DNA of 64,000 nt from Escherichia phage REP8, in sequence record OQ174507.1. One strand, given 5' to 3'. The number at the start of each line of letters is the position of its first letter. Positions within the stretch are counted from its first letter, which is position 1. The position numbers and the translations under genes were made by a program. Of the stretch, positions 18,389 through 40,209 are shown piece after piece. The notes under the pieces were generated by a model. It made no database searches and had not been told where the DNA came from. It worked only from the letters and a program-made list of their open reading frames with translations.

Positions 18389-18925
18389 TCAACTTAGTTT
18401 TGCAAACTCTCCGTGGAGTTTCATAGCAGCTTCACAGTAAGCTTTATGGGCTTCTTCAGGGGTGTCATGGTGACCTAAAAACATCTTCTTACCTTTATAA
18501 CTTATCTGTGCGACCCACTTACCAGACTTCTTCTTAAGACTTACACCCTTGTACCCAGATTTATTGGTGACTGGTTTGCCTTTATTCCAAGCACTTTGAA
18601 AGTCATCTGCTTCCCTTAAGTTTACAATCCTGTTGTCAAGTGAGTCTCCGTTGATATGGTCAATGATACCTTTTGGCATCTTGCCATACACGTAAAGCCA
18701 TGCGAGTCTGTGTGCTTTATGTGCTTTCTTGTCAAAATAGATACTAATCTGTTTATGACCACTTGAATCAGTCTGGATATTACCTGCCACCTTTCCTGCA
18801 TAATTACTGTTAAAAACACTAACAGCTCTTGATTTACCTTCTCTGCGAAGCCAAGTAAAGACCCCTGTTTCGGGGTCATAGTGTAGTAGCTCCTTTAAAC
18901 GTTTTTGTGAAATAAAATCCATCAA
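18389..18925 (-). CDS. HNH homing endonuclease with AP2-like DNA-binding domain
   Basis: HINGDSLDNRIVNLR HNH motif plus YKGVSLKKKSGKWVAQISYKGKKMFLGHHDTPEEAHKAY AP2-like segment; starts immediately after the polymerase stop codon. Confidence 0.65.
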   Translation of the reverse strand: MMDFISQKRLKELLHYDPETGVFTWLRREGKSRAVSVFNSNYAGKVAGNIQTDSSGHKQISIYFDKKAHKAHRLAWLYVYGKMPKGIIDHINGDSLDNRIVNLREADDFQSAWNKGKPVTNKSGYKGVSLKKKSGKWVAQISYKGKKMFLGHHDTPEEAHKAYCEAAMKLHGEFAKLS

Positions 18926-19482
18926 TCAATGTACCTCATACCAACTCTTACCAACCTTTGCTGTACCAGTTACAAGTGTTTCTTTCTTCAAACCTAAGTT
19001 TTTTGAAGCTTGCCCATACATCCAGTCAGCAATTGCTTTCATATCATGTGTCATATTCTCTGGGCATTCCCAACTATTTTCGTCGTGATATGCCAGAAGT
19101 AGTCTTGCTCCGATAGCTGGTTTTCGAGCATTCAGTTTTGTCAGGCCATCTTCACAGGCTTTTCTTGCTGCTAGGTTGATGGCCTCATTCTGAATCTGTG
19201 CTTCCGAACTCATCAGGAGGTAGTTCAGTAGTTTATGTGGAGATTTGCACCATATCCATGCTCCAGCGACCCTGATATAACCACCCTTAGCAATTGAAGA
19301 ATTCTTCCCAAAAACCTCTTCCAGAGCCTTTTTAGACGCCTTAAAATCGGCTTCTAAGCTATCAAGTAAACTCTTAATCTTCGGTAGACGCATATAGTAA
19401 GTCTGCTTAGTCAATGCACCTTCCTCTGTAGAAGCTGCCTTAATGGTTTTGGCAAACTTCTCATCACCTGCACCGAACAATA
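18926..19482 (-). CDS. DNA polymerase (family A), exon 2 (C-terminal part)
   Basis: FGAGDEK (motif B continuation), LLLAYHDE (motif C), C-terminal ...WYEVH ending typical of Pol A. Confidence 0.65.
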
Positions 19483-19750
19483 CATCTGGTCAATACACTC
19501 GCAAGGTGTACCAGTTCTCTTATGAACTTCTCCGCATTTCTACGGAGTGTCGGACTATATCACGTAGTAGTAATACTACCGTTGCACTTGGGAATGGTCA
19601 TTAGCTTACCACCCTACTCTACTCAGTTCATACATTAAGTATGCTTTTCGATAGTCTCTGAACGTTCCTCTCAAGAGGCTTCGCTGCTGATTACCGTATC
19701 TTCTCAGACTTAGGCTTCCAGCAATTCACAACGTTTTACATGCGCCACTG
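19483..19750 (-). ncRNA. putative group I self-splicing intron in DNA polymerase gene (boundaries inferred, +/- a few nt)
   Basis: 268-nt ORF-less insertion inside Pol A motif B; minus-strand R-like GTTCAGAGACTATCG (19664-19649) and S-like GATATAGTCC (19564-19550); 5' exon ends in U, insertion ends in G; joining restores KNGIYALLFGAGDEK. Confidence 0.55.
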
Positions 19751-21923
19751 ACGCATAAATGCCATTTTTGGCTTTCTTACGACCTTTTGTAATCTCGTGG
19801 AGAAGTTCCTCATCCTGTGTCTCCCTGCAACGAACAATATCCTCTTCTTTGTTAAGACCAAAGTAAATACTGTTCAGTGTATGCGCATCAGTCCCTGTGT
19901 AGACTTCATAGAGGTCGTTCTCAGCATCATAACGAAGATACTTATCAGTTTCTGGATTAAGATACTTATCGAGATGCTTGCAATAGTATCTGCCATCTTC
20001 TTGCTTAGTGAACTCTACTGACTCTTTACCCTCAGTTACCGCTTTGGTGAACTCTTTATCACCCATAAAGTTACAAAGAAGAACAAGCTGTGCAGAGTTC
20101 TGGTCAACTGAAACGATATTAGTCCCTTCCTCGCAAATCCAAACCTCCCTCATAGGCGCTCCATAGACAGCAGCACCAGACGGTACGTTTACAATACCAT
20201 ATTGTGTCATACGTCCAGTTGAAGTACCAAACACCATTGCACCAGCACTAAGGCGACCATCAGGACGAATCTGGTTCAACCAACCTTTTTCATCATCCTT
20301 TGAGTTCTCAATAGTTCTGCGTCGGTGCATCAAAGTATAGTACTTAGCAATCTTCTGTCCAAGCTCACCTTCAATCGTGTCATAAGATGATTCAGTAAGT
20401 TTTGGTGAAGTACGGATTAAGCAAGGCTCAAGCAAATCTGTGTATTTCTTCACAGACCAGTTATGTTCAATGTACTGTACACCTTCATGCTCAACATAGC
20501 TCAAACCACACCGCTCAACCATTTCCTGCCACTTAGGATGCTTTGTAATCATCTTTTTATTGTCTTTGAAACGACAAACTTTAACAGGGCGACCATCTGA
20601 GTCTTTCTTGTAGTTCCAGTCATCTGGAATCCAACCAACTGATTTCAAGTAGTCTTTAACAACTGCTACCTGAGTCATACGAGAAACTTCAAACTCAATT
20701 GGTGTATACGGTGCATCAATCAAACCTGTGTAGCGACTCGACTCAAGCTCAAAGTGGTTAACAACGTGGCTGTTATAGTACTTCACAGTTTTGACTGTTT
20801 TTACTGGCTTCCAGTCTTTGCATTTCTTACCAATCTTTGCGTTCAACTCATTGCAAATTGCACGAGCATCCTTCATTGCTACAAAACCTTCTTTGTACTC
20901 TTCACCAGTTACAGAGTTGGTTGGTGTATAGCAATTCCGCTTTTCAATGTTAAAAATCTTTGTAGTTGGCTTACCAAATGGCTTGATTTCATATGTCTGC
21001 ATCTCACCGTTACGTACCTGTTGACGATACTTTGTCTTAGGGTACTTGGTAATTCTCTTCAGTCCATCTGCATGACCAAATGCTTCAACATACTCATTCC
21101 AAGCTTTTGCAAACTCTTCTCCAGTGACTTTACCTTTGGTCTTAATAGTTGGAGGTAGATGTGGTTCAACCTCTGAAGCAAGCTCATTAGTCAACTTGTC
21201 AAGTTCCTTTACATGGAACTCCATAAGTTCTTTATCAGCTTTCCAGCCATTGATAGCTTGTTGACTCATCCAGAAAGATGTTTCTTTAGCTCGCATGTAG
21301 GTTTCATAGGTGTCTACGCCACACTTCTTTAGCTTCAGATATTCATTATCCAATGCACGTTTAGTTTTGGCGTTGATACGGATATCTTCTACAACACGAG
21401 TGAAGATTTCTGCATTCCACACACCCCAATGTTCAATCTCTGGTTTACGAACACCAACACGAGCACCCCATGCAGCCAAGCCATGAGCACCTTTATAACC
21501 CTTTGGAGTTGGCCTATCCATCCACTGAACACGAGACTGGATAAGAGAATCCTGAAAGAAATTACTCCACGGTTTACACTTTGGATTATCAAAGTTCCAT
21601 AAATCAGGTGCAATGTGATTGAAAACCCACCAGTCATAACCGAGACCGTTATGGATGCAAAGACGTTTTGCCTTTAACGCAAATTCAACACCTTCACGTA
21701 AACCACCCTTGATGTACTTAGTGTACTTGTGACCGAGGATAGGTTCATCTGTAAAGACCCATACAGGTGGCTCTTCATCGTCAGATTTATAGTCTGCGAA
21801 AGCCATTACGTGCACTTTAGTGAACTCAAGAAGTAAACCATCAGTTTCTGTATCACCAACTAAATGTAAGTTTTTAAAATCTACGTTTTCCATTTTTACT
21901 CCCTCTAAAATCATTAACCTCAT
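19751..21923 (-). CDS. DNA polymerase (family A, T7-like), exon 1 with 3'-5' exonuclease domain
   Basis: DTETDG Exo I motif; VSVDQNSAQLVLL motif A; RKKAKNGIY start of motif B; the ORF then reads into the insertion for 12 codons before a stop. Confidence 0.7.
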
Positions 21924-27757: not shown

Positions 27758-28798
27758 ATGGAGAAGTACACATTAACAAAACTTCCCGATTCAGTTACAC
27801 ATGTTTTTATTGACTCTGACAGTATTGCCTATAAAGGTGCTTGTGTAGTTGAGAAAGCAAAATATAAATATGTCAATAAACTCACAGCAGAAGAGTCTGA
27901 GCCATTTGATAATGCGAAAGATGCTGCAAGATGGTTAGCAGACCAGAGAATCCTTGTGGAAGAGCTTGGTCTGACATTTGATGAAGATGAATGGGAAAGA
28001 CAGACTTGGAAAGAAGCTAAGAGTGAAAAAGAAGCTATCATGGCTACTCAACAGGTGCTTCAGGAATGGCTTAAGGTTGTTGGTAAAGAGAGAACTTGGG
28101 TAGGTTATTTAACAGAGAAAGGTGTGCATAAACATAAAGACATTAAAGGTCTTGAGCACCAATATCAAGGGAACCGTAAAGATGCTGTCACACCAACACA
28201 CTTAGTTGCTTGTCGTGAATACCTTTTATCCAGACCAGAGTTCAAGCTGATTCTTGATGGATTTGAAGCTGACTCTATCGTTATTGCTAAAGCTGAAAAG
28301 ATGGGAAAAAAGGCTGCCTTAATGAGTATTGATAAAGACCTTCGCCAAGCTGAAGGGACTTACTGCATTGATATGACCTATGAAAAGTCGCCTTTGATTT
28401 TTATTGCTGATAACAACGTTGGTGAAATTTGGGATTGTCCAATAAAATCGACACCAAAAGCTAAGAAGACAGTTGGTGTGGGTTTTAAATTCCTTTGTTA
28501 TCAAGCTGTGGCTGGTGACAATGCTGATAATTATTTTGGTTTAAAGGGCGTTGGTAAGGCTACTGTAATGAAAGCCCTTGAAGGTAAAAATACTTATAAA
28601 GAGTGTCTTGATGCTATCTATGAACTTTATGCTAAGAAAGAGTCATACACTTATGTATCATGGGATGGTCAAACAATTACCAGAACACCTTTAGAGTTAA
28701 TGCAGCAACACTTTTTCTTAGCTTATCAGGAAAGAAATAAGAAAGACGATTTTACTTTTAAGAAATATAATTGGGAGCCGTGTATGAATGAAGATTAA
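27758..28798 (+). CDS. 5'-3' exonuclease / flap endonuclease
   Basis: Acidic-residue N-terminal domain and helix-3-turn-helix-like NYFGLKGVGKATVMKAL. Confidence 0.55.
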   Translation: MEKYTLTKLPDSVTHVFIDSDSIAYKGACVVEKAKYKYVNKLTAEESEPFDNAKDAARWLADQRILVEELGLTFDEDEWERQTWKEAKSEKEAIMATQQVLQEWLKVVGKERTWVGYLTEKGVHKHKDIKGLEHQYQGNRKDAVTPTHLVACREYLLSRPEFKLILDGFEADSIVIAKAEKMGKKAALMSIDKDLRQAEGTYCIDMTYEKSPLIFIADNNVGEIWDCPIKSTPKAKKTVGVGFKFLCYQAVAGDNADNYFGLKGVGKATVMKALEGKNTYKECLDAIYELYAKKESYTYVSWDGQTITRTPLELMQQHFFLAYQERNKKDDFTFKKYNWEPCMNED

Positions 28799-29285
28799 AG
28801 GATTTGGTAATTGCCCCACCTATGGTCATTGGGTATCTTTATGTGGGGAAGTTGACCCCACTAAACATTTTGGTTTTGTCTATTTAGTACACTGTAAGAA
28901 AACCGGACAATATTATATAGGAAGGAAACAGTTTAACAGTGTTACCAAAAGAAAAGTTGCTGGAAAGACTCGGAAGAAGGTAGTCACTAAGGAGAGTGAT
29001 TGGATGACTTATGAGACTTCTTCTGAGTATATTAAAAAAGATATTGAGAGCTTTGGAAAAGAATTTTTTGACTTTTACATTATTCAGACCTACTACACAA
29101 AAGGTGGCCTAGTTTATGGTGAAGCAAACCTTCAACATAAGTTCGATGTAATGACAAAAAGGATTGACTCGAAGCTCAGACTCTTCTACAATGCCAATAT
29201 TGCAGCAATTAAGTTTATCACTAAAGAAACTTATGAAGATGCTGAAAAAAGAATCCATAAGGTAATGAAAGCAAATTGTGCTTGA
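28788..29285 (+). CDS. GIY-YIG-like nuclease
   Basis: GFVYLVHCKKTGQYYIGRK matches GIY-(~9)-YIG spacing; overlaps 3' end of exonuclease gene. Confidence 0.4.
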   Translation: MKIKGFGNCPTYGHWVSLCGEVDPTKHFGFVYLVHCKKTGQYYIGRKQFNSVTKRKVAGKTRKKVVTKESDWMTYETSSEYIKKDIESFGKEFFDFYIIQTYYTKGGLVYGEANLQHKFDVMTKRIDSKLRLFYNANIAAIKFITKETYEDAEKRIHKVMKANCA

Positions 29286-35071: not shown

Positions 35072-36268
35072 ATGAACAAAGTACAGATTATTAAAAAGAA
35101 TGGCTCACTCGAAGAACCTGATATCAAAAAAGTTTTAACAGCAGTCACAAAGTCAGCTAATAGGGTTGGGTATAAAGAACTCCCGCCAGATGTTACCCAA
35201 GCTCTTGAGTCAGCATTTATGAGGGTTCTGGTAAAATCCACTAAGCAGAATAATTTACTCGTTTCAGTAAATGATATTCACAGTATTGTTGAGGGTGCTT
35301 TGGCAGAAGTCAATCACGAGATTTATGAGTCTTACTCAACATATAGAAATTACCGTAAAGAGGTTGCTCAAAACTGGGATGAACTCTACCAGAAGACTAA
35401 AGATACACTCTTCTTAGGTGACCGTGAAAATGCTAATTTTGACAGCAGTTTAATTTCTACGAAAGGTTCAATTATCCGTGGTTACCTGACTAAAGAAATC
35501 TTTAAACAGTATCATCTAACACCAGAGGAACTTGAAGCCATTGAGAAAGGCTTTGTCTATATCCATGATTTAAGAGACCTGATTTTTGGTGGTATTAACT
35601 GTTGCCTGTTTGACATTGGTAAAGTACTAAAAGGTGGCTTTGAAATGTCCGGCATTGAGTACTGTGAACCTAAATCTGTACTGTCAGCGTTGCAGGTTAT
35701 TGGTGACGTAGTACTTTCAGCAACTGCACAGCAATTTGGTGGTTTTACTTTAGCAGAGATTGATAAGGTACTTGTACCGTATGCGAAGAAGTCTCTACGC
35801 TATCATGCTGAGAAAGCATCATCTTATGGTATCCCTAAAGAGCATTACCACAATTATGTCATGGAGCAGCTACAGATTGAACTGACTCAAGGTTTCCAGT
35901 CGCTTGAAATGAAACTAAACACTGTACCTTGTAGTCGTGGGGATTTTGCATTTACAACTTTGACATTCGGGTTACTTGACTCAGACATGTCTAATGAAGA
36001 CAACCGACTGCAATACATGATTGCAAGTACTCTCCTAGATGTTCGTATGAATGGACAAGGTAAGAGTAAGAAGCCTGTTGTATTCCCTAAACTGGTTTAT
36101 ATTTATGACCAGAAGAGACATAATGAGAATATCTGTCAAGGCCACCTGTACAGTAAAGCTATAGAGTGTTGCTCTAAAGCGATGTATCCAGATTTCTTAA
36201 GTGTATCTGGTCATGGTGCTGTAGCAGAAGCTTTTGAGCGTTCTGGTAAGGTTATTTCACCGATGGGT
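35072..36268 (+). CDS. nrdD: anaerobic ribonucleotide reductase, exon 1
   Basis: ORF ends ...VISPMG then TAA; continuation found in frame at 36585. Confidence 0.7.
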
Positions 36269-36584
36269 TAACAAGCTCTATAGCTCATCTAAAACGTGCC
36301 TAAACAGGGAAACTCTACAGATGTAGACAATCCTGTGCTAAATGATGTACGATGTAAGAAACTATACAACATAGGGGTCTTACATGCCAAATAACTTCGA
36401 ATATGAGTTTGGATACATCTAAATGCCGAACGACTAACCGTGATGAATGTAGCGGTGTAGGGTCAAGCGACTCGAAATGGTACGCTACTTAGAAATAAGT
36501 AGAAGATATAGTCTGGACTTACTGGCGACAGTAAGCAGCTTGAATAAAGCGGGGTAAGCGTAGCGAACTTACCTGAACAACAAG
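36269..36584 (+). ncRNA. putative group I self-splicing intron in nrdD
   Basis: 316-nt ORF-less insertion; 5' exon ends in U, insertion ends in G; S-like AAGATATAGTCTGG (36503-36516) and R-like CGAACGACTAACC (36428-36440); downstream frame encodes CRAFLSPYHNEDGEEFYVGRANIGAVSLNLP. Confidence 0.55.
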
Positions 36585-37532
36585 TGTAGAGCGTTTTTAT
36601 CACCATACCATAACGAAGATGGTGAAGAGTTTTATGTAGGTCGTGCTAACATTGGTGCTGTATCTTTGAACTTACCAATGATTTACCAGTACTCTAAAGA
36701 GAATGGTTTAGATTTCTGGAAAGAGCTTGATAAGTACCTAGAAATGATTCGCAGCTTCCACAAGAAACGCTACGAAATGATTGCTAATATGCCAGCAAGT
36801 TCTAACCCTCTTGCATTCACACAAGGTGGTCTGTACAAAGGGACTAAGAAACCTACTGACAAGGTTGGTTGGGATATCGTGAAGTCCTTCACAGCTTCTT
36901 TTGGGGTTACTGCGCTTGATGAGCTATCTGTTCTTGCTGAAGGTAAACGACTTCATGAAGTTGGAAGCTGTAGTTTTGCATACGATGTTCTGGAATACAT
37001 CAACATGAAAACTGAAGAGTTTAAGAACGAAGATGGCTTCTTGTATGCGGTATATGGCACTCCAGCAGAATCACTTTGCGGAACTCAGCTAAAACAGTTC
37101 AGAGATATGTTTGGCGTTATTAAAGGTGTCTCTGACAAGGAATACTTTACAAACAGTTTCCATATGAATGTTGCAGCAGACATTACACCATTTGAGAAGC
37201 AGGACTTAGAAGAACCCTTCTTTCATATCTGTAGAGGCGGCAGAATCCAGTATGTAAGGGTAGCTAATCCAGAAAACTTATCAGCACTTAAAAGTTGTAT
37301 TACAAGAGGGATGTTGAAAGGTTTCTATCAGGGACTTAACTTTGACTTAGCAATCTGTGAACATTGTGGTAACAGACCAAAGGCTGATGTTGAAGAATGT
37401 GAGGTTTGCCATTCACACGATATCTCTGTGATTAACAGGGTGTGCGGGTACTTGTCATTCACAAAAATTAAAGGTCAGTCTCGAATGAATGACGCTAAGA
37501 TGGCAGAAATTAAGGATAGAGTATCTATGTAA
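36585..37532 (+). CDS. nrdD: anaerobic ribonucleotide reductase, exon 2 (glycyl-radical domain)
   Basis: C-terminal Cys cluster CEHCGN...CEVC and glycyl-radical motif RVCGYLS. Confidence 0.75.
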   Translation, partial: CRAFLSPYHNEDGEEFYVGRANIGAVSLNLPMIYQYSKENGLDFWKELDKYLEMIRSFHKKRYEMIANMPASSNPLAFTQGGLYKGTKKPTDKVGWDIVKSFTASFGVTALDELSVLAEGKRLHEVGSCSFAYDVLEYINMKTEEFKNEDGFLYAVYGTPAESLCGTQLKQFRDMFGVIKGVSDKEYFTNSFHMNVAADITPFEKQDLEEPFFHICRGGRIQYVRVANPENLSALKSCITRGMLKGFYQGLNFDLAICEHCGNRPKADVEECEVCHSHDISVINRVCGYLSFTKIKGQSRMNDAKMAEIKDRVSM

Positions 37533-39693: not shown

Positions 39694-40209
39694 ATGTATC
39701 TGTCAAACCTGAAACGTTCGGCTGCAATGTCAGTGTTAAGACTCAGCTTTGAGGAACGTCAAGAGTTCATTGACTCCCACCAATACGACCCCTCAAACTC
39801 CAATCACATGATTCTCTGGAATCGTGAAAGTGCTCGTGAAAGAGCACTATTCCGTTATTACCCACACTACACCATAGACAACCTGTATGAATGTTTTGTT
39901 GTGAAGAACACCATTACAGTACTCAATAAACTTTGCAGATACACAGGTAGTCAATCCTTCACATTAGGCCACCACAAACCTGTTACAAAGGGTGGTGAGC
40001 ATCACTGTGCAAACTGGTTTATCCAGACTAAACTTGATAACCAGAAGCAGGGAGATAACCTTCTAAGCACACCTAAGATGACCTACGAAGAACAAGAGAA
40101 ATATATCAAAAATAATATGCCAGATGTGCTTGACAACAACTATACAGATTTGGCAATATCTCTCCTGTTGAAGTTCGAGACAGTTTATAGGGCAACTTAT
40201 AATGGCTAA
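39694..40209 (+). CDS. HNH-like nuclease
   Basis: LGHHKPVTKGGEHHCANW...N resembles the HNH His/Asn core; weak. Confidence 0.3.
   Translation: MYLSNLKRSAAMSVLRLSFEERQEFIDSHQYDPSNSNHMILWNRESARERALFRYYPHYTIDNLYECFVVKNTITVLNKLCRYTGSQSFTLGHHKPVTKGGEHHCANWFIQTKLDNQKQGDNLLSTPKMTYEEQEKYIKNNMPDVLDNNYTDLAISLLLKFETVYRATYNG

Follow-up and report, generated by a model that had tools for sequence, protein, structure and literature searches.

A stand-alone GIY-YIG nuclease gene beside the 5'-3' exonuclease gene of Escherichia phage REP8: a probable core replication-module gene rather than a homing endonuclease

The closest described relatives of the gene analyzed here are the Seg-type enzymes of phage T4, the T4 enzymes I-TevI and endonuclease II, and a few minimal GIY-YIG proteins. 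Seg-type genes are free-standing, lie between conserved phage genes and are sporadic in distribution; their products of 205-390 aa carry a C-terminal DNA-binding module. I-TevI is intron-encoded, and its catalytic domain (PDB 1LN0) is followed by a long linker and a zinc-finger and helix-turn-helix (HTH) DNA-binding region. T4 endonuclease II (DenA, PDB 2WSH) is a phage-encoded, non-mobile GIY-YIG domain without a separate DNA-binding domain, encoded beside nucleotide-metabolism genes, and is the precedent for a GIY-YIG enzyme that serves a phage as a housekeeping nuclease. Slx1, the N-terminal domain of UvrC and HIGLE are minimal GIY-YIG domains, which cut branched, flapped or damaged DNA of no specific sequence alongside other nucleases. 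Here we describe a GIY-YIG nuclease gene (hereafter GIY) in a 64,000-nucleotide stretch of Escherichia phage REP8 (OQ174507.1; the window), where it overlaps the 3' end of a 5'-3' exonuclease gene. An earlier note had taken it for a free-standing homing endonuclease. GIY shares the catalytic-domain family of the Seg-type enzymes and, like their genes, stands alone between conserved genes, but it encodes only 165 aa with no C-terminal DNA-binding module, and is fixed and under strong purifying selection rather than sporadic. We consider it likely that GIY is a core, non-mobile nuclease gene. With somewhat less assurance, we think it probable that its product is a stand-alone endonuclease working with the flap exonuclease on DNA intermediates of the phage itself.

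The GIY protein matches the Pfam family PF19835 (SegE_GIY-YIG) with an E-value of 1.7e-28 and 99.8 bits against a gathering cut-off of 25, over model positions 10-123 of 123, and is assigned to PHROG 447. We scored residue conservation across 162 family members, comprising 85 short and 77 long sequences. W15, G29, Y32, Y43, G45, K47, W72, Y75, S78, E112 and N135 are invariant or nearly so; G29, Y32, Y43 and G45 of the two signature motifs are identical in all 162, and ten residues separate the tyrosine of G29-F-V-Y32 from that of Y43-I-G45. Also invariant throughout are E112 and N135, which align to the glutamate and the YYN motif of T4 SegE. Judging by the order of structural elements, they would be the positional equivalents of the metal ligand E75 and of N90 in I-TevI. 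An AlphaFold2 model built from 74 diverse homologues (mean predicted local distance difference test score, pLDDT, 96.4) contains the GIY-YIG fold, with a three-stranded sheet and helices of the I-TevI/UvrC catalytic-domain type, and finds its best structural match in I-TevI. A model from 12 homologues was discarded, its residues 111-143, which hold E112 and N135, being unusable. The Pfam match and the modelled fold confirm the identification of a GIY-YIG nuclease gene in the earlier note, which had also given the motif spacing correctly and, as the open reading frame (ORF) coordinates show, the 11-nt overlap with the exonuclease gene.

Profile comparison with hhalign places the protein close to SegE: the profile of the 74-sequence family matches T4 SegE with 96% probability and an E-value of 1.4e-9. 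The same profile gives no significant match to T4 endonuclease II, to which no sequence homology was found, or to I-TevI, with whose catalytic domain the protein shares 15% identity. A shallow 12-sequence profile gave non-significant results against T4 endonuclease II, I-TevI and SegG, and a PDB sequence search with the single GIY protein returned chance matches only (E>0.7). Helix alpha-1, which bears Arg27 in I-TevI, is replaced in the GIY protein by a beta-hairpin (residues 50-69), and the stretch of 21 residues from 49 to 69 holds eight lysines or arginines. Neither this 19-residue basic hairpin nor the N-terminal extension has a counterpart in T4 SegE. The helix itself is missing from T4 SegE as well, which points to a feature of the whole subfamily instead of damage to the GIY gene. 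The Pfam model, named after T4 SegE, matches that protein with only 36 bits over half of the model; the short form of cyanophages scores 187 bits.

Members of the PF19835-type family form 2274 clusters at 50% identity (E<=0.001), and their lengths are bimodal. Short members of 120-200 aa, including the GIY protein, consist of the nuclease domain alone. All ten long relatives sampled from the 220-390 aa class have C-terminal matches to NUMOD3, NUMOD1 or HTH-type domains, about half of them below the Pfam cut-off; this is the classic two-part architecture of the Seg/Tev type. The GIY protein has no Pfam match past residue 138, its tail measures just 27 residues, and no DNA-binding domain in Pfam matched the C-terminal helix (residues 150-164). 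A downstream 82-aa coiled-coil ORF was considered as a DNA-binding partner and rejected, as it is not conserved outside the closest genera. What the ORF encodes is a GIY-YIG endonuclease domain on its own, a member of the PF19835 ('SegE-like') family that lacks any added module for DNA binding. Since it keeps every residue that is invariant in NUMOD-bearing relatives, the protein is presumably catalytically active.

In GenBank the gene is labelled either 'NAD synthetase' or 'GIY-YIG homing endonuclease'. We reject the first label, which is carried by many records and by PHROG 447: no NAD synthase family was matched in Pfam or NCBIfam at E<=1, and the fold is GIY-YIG. It has spread over Felix O1-like phages, T4-like cyanophages and roseophage DSS3_VP1 (for example, locus L002, 3941-4381, and locus L202, 5986-6510). 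The GIY sequence itself is not new, being already in GenBank and in a Pfam family. We found no prior description of GIY as a variant of the Seg-type domain that consists of the nuclease alone, is fixed and evolves slowly, of its pairing with a flap exonuclease across many phage lineages, or of the 'NAD synthetase' label being wrong and the 'homing endonuclease' label unsupported.

Sequence comparison identifies the window as a segment of a Felixounavirus genome. Over the 4 kb around GIY, identity is 100% with Escherichia phages REP9-REP12 and 96-97% with many further phages of the Felix O1 type (window positions equal REP9 positions plus 13092). The earlier note had proposed a presence/absence comparison among related phages, in which a homing gene should be sporadic. 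Instead, tblastn recovers the GIY protein from 253 phage records (>=80% identity) and the adjacent exonuclease from 256, and GIY directly follows the exonuclease gene in 34/34 Ounavirinae-like IMG/VR loci (one copy is cut by a contig end and one is frameshifted). No allele lacking GIY was found among the natural relatives examined. The same gene order occurs in another genus, in Kolesnikvirus phiEa104. Identities to the window proteins in Kolesnikvirus are 62% for GIY, 54% for the exonuclease, 57% for NrdA and 38% for the MazG-like protein; in a more distant lineage (L036) they are 53%, 48% and 28% for GIY, the exonuclease and the MazG-like protein, with NrdA not found.

The cross-genus identity of GIY thus declines in step with that of the flanking genes, but more slowly, and GIY shows the highest conservation among the seven neighbouring proteins that were compared between genera. 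Its pairwise ratio of non-synonymous to synonymous substitution rates (dN/dS) lies between 0.03 and 0.055, much as for the exonuclease, and where dS is saturated GIY has the lowest dN among the neighbouring genes compared. These values point to strong purifying selection. The GC content at third codon positions is ordinary, with no compositional anomaly. Because the ranking of identities across genera matches that of the flanking genes, GIY appears to have descended vertically. On this comparative evidence we read it, in the Ounavirinae lineage, as a vertically inherited core gene of the replication/nucleotide-metabolism block, which runs in the order primase/helicase, a 284-aa protein, 5'-3' exonuclease, GIY, MazG-like, NrdA/B, and not as a mobile homing gene.

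The same junction supplies an internal control. A gene for an HNH_3+AP2 protein of 166-174 aa interrupts the pair in phage Mushroom and in 13 of the 34 Ounavirinae-like loci, sitting exactly between the exonuclease and GIY genes (occupied examples: L005, 4480-5004; L003, 2501-3001). Its alleles are just 48-99% identical, even where the GIY proteins of the same phages are 99% identical. By these sequence criteria the truly mobile gene at the junction is the HNH-AP2 ORF. The window carries the empty form of its insertion site, and the occupied form (L005) and the empty form (the window) have different exonuclease C termini over ~20 residues. The earlier note had counted GIY as a third selfish nuclease in the window beside two HNH genes. 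That count is not supported: GIY occurs in nearly all Felix O1-like phages, and the real mobile gene of the junction is absent here. One of the two HNH genes is genuine: 18389-18922 (minus strand), directly downstream of the second DNA polymerase exon, encodes a 177-aa HNH_3+AP2 protein with the same domain pair as the gene at the junction of the relatives. The other, 39694-40209 (plus strand), matches no HNH family in Pfam and DUF7167 only below threshold, and is annotated as hypothetical in REP9.

The exonuclease assignment rests on PHROG 107 (E 1.7e-65), as matches of the ORF to Pfam 5_3_exonuc are weak, and on a BLASTP match (E 2e-8) to a marine FEN-type exonuclease which itself matches Pfam 5_3_exonuc. 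The 11-nt overlap of the two genes suggests translational coupling: with the GIY start overlapping the exonuclease stop, the two proteins are probably co-translated. The coordinates of the locus are collected in Table 1.

Table 1. Features of the exonuclease-GIY locus (window coordinates)
Feature	Position	Strand	Description and basis
5'-3' exonuclease gene (partner gene)	27758..28798	+	346 aa, FEN/RNase H family; PHROG 107, Pfam, BLASTP
GGGAG, Shine-Dalgarno-like motif	28773..28777	+	10 nt 5' of the GIY ATG, within the exonuclease coding region
Exonuclease stop/GIY start overlap	28788..28798	+	11 nt; empty insertion site for the sporadic HNH-AP2 gene of relatives
GIY-YIG nuclease gene	28788..29285	+	165 aa, isoelectric point 9.5, basic, single-domain; ORF list
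GIY-YIG catalytic domain	28848..29201	+	residues 21-138; Pfam match
'GIY' motif, G29-F-V-Y32	28872..28883	+	G29 and Y32 invariant in 162/162 family members
'YIG' motif and invariant Lys, Y43-I-G45-R-K47	28914..28928	+	family alignment
Basic beta-hairpin, candidate DNA-contact element	28935..28994	+	residues 50-69; secondary structure, gap in the SegE alignment, composition
Family-specific motif with invariant W72, Y75, S78	29001..29021	+	family alignment
E112, invariant Glu	29121..29123	+	third helix; family alignment, T4 SegE alignment
N135, invariant Asn of the 'YYN' motif	29190..29192	+	family alignment, T4 SegE alignment
C-terminal helix	29235..29279	+	residues 150-164; beyond the Pfam domain, in only about half of short forms

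Loci fetched with the GIY protein as query showed GIY inside the replication modules of unrelated marine phage contigs, adjoining or near a FEN-type exonuclease gene. Because these loci had been selected through GIY, we re-sampled with neighbouring genes as bait, and confirmed the identity of the marine FEN by Pfam on seven representatives. A marine primase/helicase used as bait retrieved loci at 48-100% identity, and those with enough upstream sequence all (44/44) read FEN, GIY, primase/helicase. With PolA at >=58% identity, GIY lies immediately upstream of PolA in 26/26 loci, and FEN follows 2.3-2.9 kb downstream wherever the fetched sequence reaches that far; in distant PolA loci (33-40% identity) GIY comes directly after FEN in all nine with a complete FEN gene. 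The cultured roseophage DSS3_VP1 (Naomviridae) has the order PolA, 5'-3' exonuclease, GIY, primase/helicase, ribonucleotide reductase. T4-like cyanophages have the short form within a few kb of nrdA/nrdB; among cyanomyoviruses it was recovered from about 397 records at >=60% identity and NrdB from 472 (>=60%), a proportion of about 84%. Taken across these genomes, the nuclease-only form is fixed or nearly so in several deep lineages and, in most of them, physically linked to a flap exonuclease gene.

Two further observations concern these loci. In one marine lineage (L068, 4159-5483; L069, 432-1756; L070, 4078-5462) the FEN frame runs on without a stop through 250-330 nt of the GIY ORF, which uses a different frame, and two divergent members of the lineage lose their FEN homology around residue 274, ahead of the overlapping part. 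The two genes may truly overlap here, the stretch may hold a frameshift site, or the open frame may be fortuitous. In DSS3_VP1 an ORF annotated as 'endonuclease VII' separates two annotated parts of the gene for the large terminase subunit (L204, 4390-6410), which looks like another endonuclease insertion splitting a conserved gene.

For the function of GIY, the favoured models are Slx1, UvrC and HIGLE. By analogy with them, the most plausible activity would be structure-selective cleavage at nicks, flaps, forks or junctions. The GIY protein would cut DNA with structure selectivity, or with low sequence selectivity, and would work alongside the flap exonuclease on replication or recombination intermediates of the phage; for example, it could incise branches, forks or nicks, after which the exonuclease would trim the resulting flaps and ends. 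It would probably neither cut a single homing site nor shred the host chromosome. Phage T7 encodes its gene 3 endonuclease I and gene 6 5'-3' exonuclease in one replication module, and offers an analogy for cooperation of the two activities on branched DNA. The fold of endonuclease I is unrelated, and the T7 pair also destroys host DNA, which is unlikely for the GIY pair. Some slight support for a branch-cutting role comes from the lack of other candidates: the full annotation of REP9 lists no Holliday-junction resolvase or endonuclease VII, tblastn of the REP9 genome with T4 gp49 gave nothing (best E 0.77), and Synechococcus phages are outside the top ten organism names among gp49 matches. 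We put forward the specific mechanism, with branched DNA as substrate and FEN as partner, tentatively, and would give it somewhat less than an even chance.

Several observations weigh against the reading of GIY as a core endonuclease partnered with the exonuclease. Arg27 of I-TevI has no invariant counterpart: residue 62 is arginine in only ~40% of members, 63-64 are lysine or arginine, and K47 is invariant. Family-wide conservation, and not the presence of a canonical active site, is therefore what speaks for activity. A neighbour-joining tree of the domain (~154 columns; among the metagenomic short forms, some could be truncated calls) intermingles short and long forms, with 42 state changes against a shuffle mean of 54 and a minimum of 42 in 200 shuffles. 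Short forms are therefore close kin of probable homing enzymes and could have originated more than once, and we do not claim a single ancient clade of short forms. In the cyanomyovirus loci examined around the short form, FEN was not detected (PMC2984593), so GIY need not be coupled to an exonuclease of the phage. In DSS3_VP1 an 'endonuclease VII' is annotated besides GIY, so GIY is not necessarily the sole branch-cutting enzyme, and the search for an anti-correlation of GIY with endonuclease VII is just weakly supportive. Homing-endonuclease genes also favour sites beside conserved replication genes. The neighbourhood alone is therefore ambiguous, and it is the fixation of GIY, the purifying selection on it and its lack of a DNA-binding module that argue against homing. 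A scan of the locus for promoters and terminators gave nothing above chance, and the promoter-like part of that result counts here too. Finally, the literature search found no biochemical or genetic study of any member of the GIY family, and nothing on the gene family in Felix O1-type phages, on PF19835, on SegE-like proteins or on PHROG 447.

Among the alternatives, the one that survives best, though we regard it as unlikely, is that GIY is a domesticated conflict nuclease, which cuts the DNA of co-infecting phages, satellites or other invaders and is kept fixed by that benefit. Marker exclusion by Seg-type enzymes and the Odn nuclease of ICP1 are precedents for such a role. GIY, however, has no recognisable specificity domain. 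Genes of this kind usually evolve fast and vary in presence, whereas GIY is slow and universal, and its stable pairing with a flap exonuclease across deep lineages points to housekeeping.

A slightly less credible possibility is the degradation of host DNA in the manner of T4 endonuclease II, with GIY nicking or cutting the DNA and the exonuclease freeing nucleotides for the products of the adjacent MazG and ribonucleotide reductase genes. GIY does lie between the exonuclease and nucleotide-metabolism genes, and T4 endonuclease II, also a GIY-YIG domain with no DNA-binding module, adjoins nrdB (PMC2764454). Cyanomyoviruses, which are without denA, denB and ndd (PMC2984593; PMC2993671), carry GIY near nrdA/B, and reviewers have proposed an undescribed degradation route in them (PMC2984593). 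The nrd neighbours and the absence of denA and denB from cyanomyoviruses led us to favour this role initially; we demoted it on the experiments of Keen et al. with SUSP1 and SUSP2. These Felix O1-like phages release intact, transformable plasmid DNA, and in the SUSP2 lysates, which were the ones measured, host chromosomal DNA exceeded that of T4 lysates >30-fold and intact plasmid ~10-fold; SUSP phages were said to encode no known hydrolytic endonuclease (PMC5241400). Both carry GIY orthologues of 87% identity (L023 and L022) yet leave host DNA intact. A promiscuous nuclease of duplex DNA is unlikely, because host and plasmid DNA survive infection by phages with these orthologues.

The reading of the earlier note, an active free-standing homing endonuclease that spreads like T4 SegA-G by cutting GIY-less genomes near the insertion site in mixed infections, seems to us very improbable. 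GIY shares its Pfam family and all invariant residues with NUMOD-bearing probable homing enzymes, its profile and model point to T4 SegE and I-TevI, it sits between conserved genes, and some GenBank records call it a homing endonuclease. Against this, the protein has no DNA-binding domain, the gene is fixed in essentially all relatives with no empty target alleles seen, it encodes the slowest-evolving protein of the neighbourhood, its identity ranks agree with those of the flanking genes, and it contrasts with the truly sporadic HNH-AP2 gene at the same junction. Least probable of all is that the protein has kept the fold but lost the chemistry and serves the exonuclease or the replisome as an inactive accessory or structural partner: the canonical alpha-1 arginine is missing, with the beta-hairpin in its place, but the Tyr, Tyr, Glu and Asn residues are invariant in all 162 members, including NUMOD-bearing forms that need activity to home, and T4 SegE, a site-specific homing endonuclease according to the T4 record, also aligns without the helix.

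Apart from the nuclease genes, the window contains two group I introns (Rfam RF00028). The first, at 19530-19813 on the minus strand (61.7 bits, above the gathering score), spans the gap between two DNA polymerase ORFs on that strand (~18926-19480 and 19710-21893) and overlaps the 3' end of the larger; the Felix O1 genome paper reports no insertions in such genes (PMC3185647). The second, at 36161-36535 on the plus strand (55.4 bits), overlaps the 3' end of the first nrdD ORF (~35072-36271) and most of the gap to the second (~36678-37532).

If GIY is a core nuclease as we propose, hundreds of deposited phage genomes mislabel it, including those of Felix O1-type phages under consideration for biocontrol and therapy and of abundant marine cyanophages. 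GIY would then be an apparently essential-looking nuclease of the replication module, which bears on how such phages process branched replication or recombination intermediates without an annotated resolvase, and on why Felix O1-like "superspreader" phages spare host and plasmid DNA though they encode an endonuclease. The locus sets a fixed housekeeping nuclease, GIY, which is universal and slow-evolving, against a mobile one, the HNH-AP2 gene, which is sporadic and fast-evolving. A bolder and doubtful extension is that FEN and the stand-alone GIY protein form an unrecognised two-nuclease module of replication or recombination, in which GIY would be the missing branch- or junction-cutting enzyme, a functional counterpart of T4 endonuclease VII, T7 endonuclease I or eukaryotic Slx1 in phages whose annotation lists no resolvase. 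With the same doubt, such a module may span the Ounavirinae, the Naomviridae and several large uncultured marine lineages, with GIY alone in most cyanomyoviruses. If that is true, a catalytic domain of the homing type would be serving as a housekeeping enzyme in these phages.

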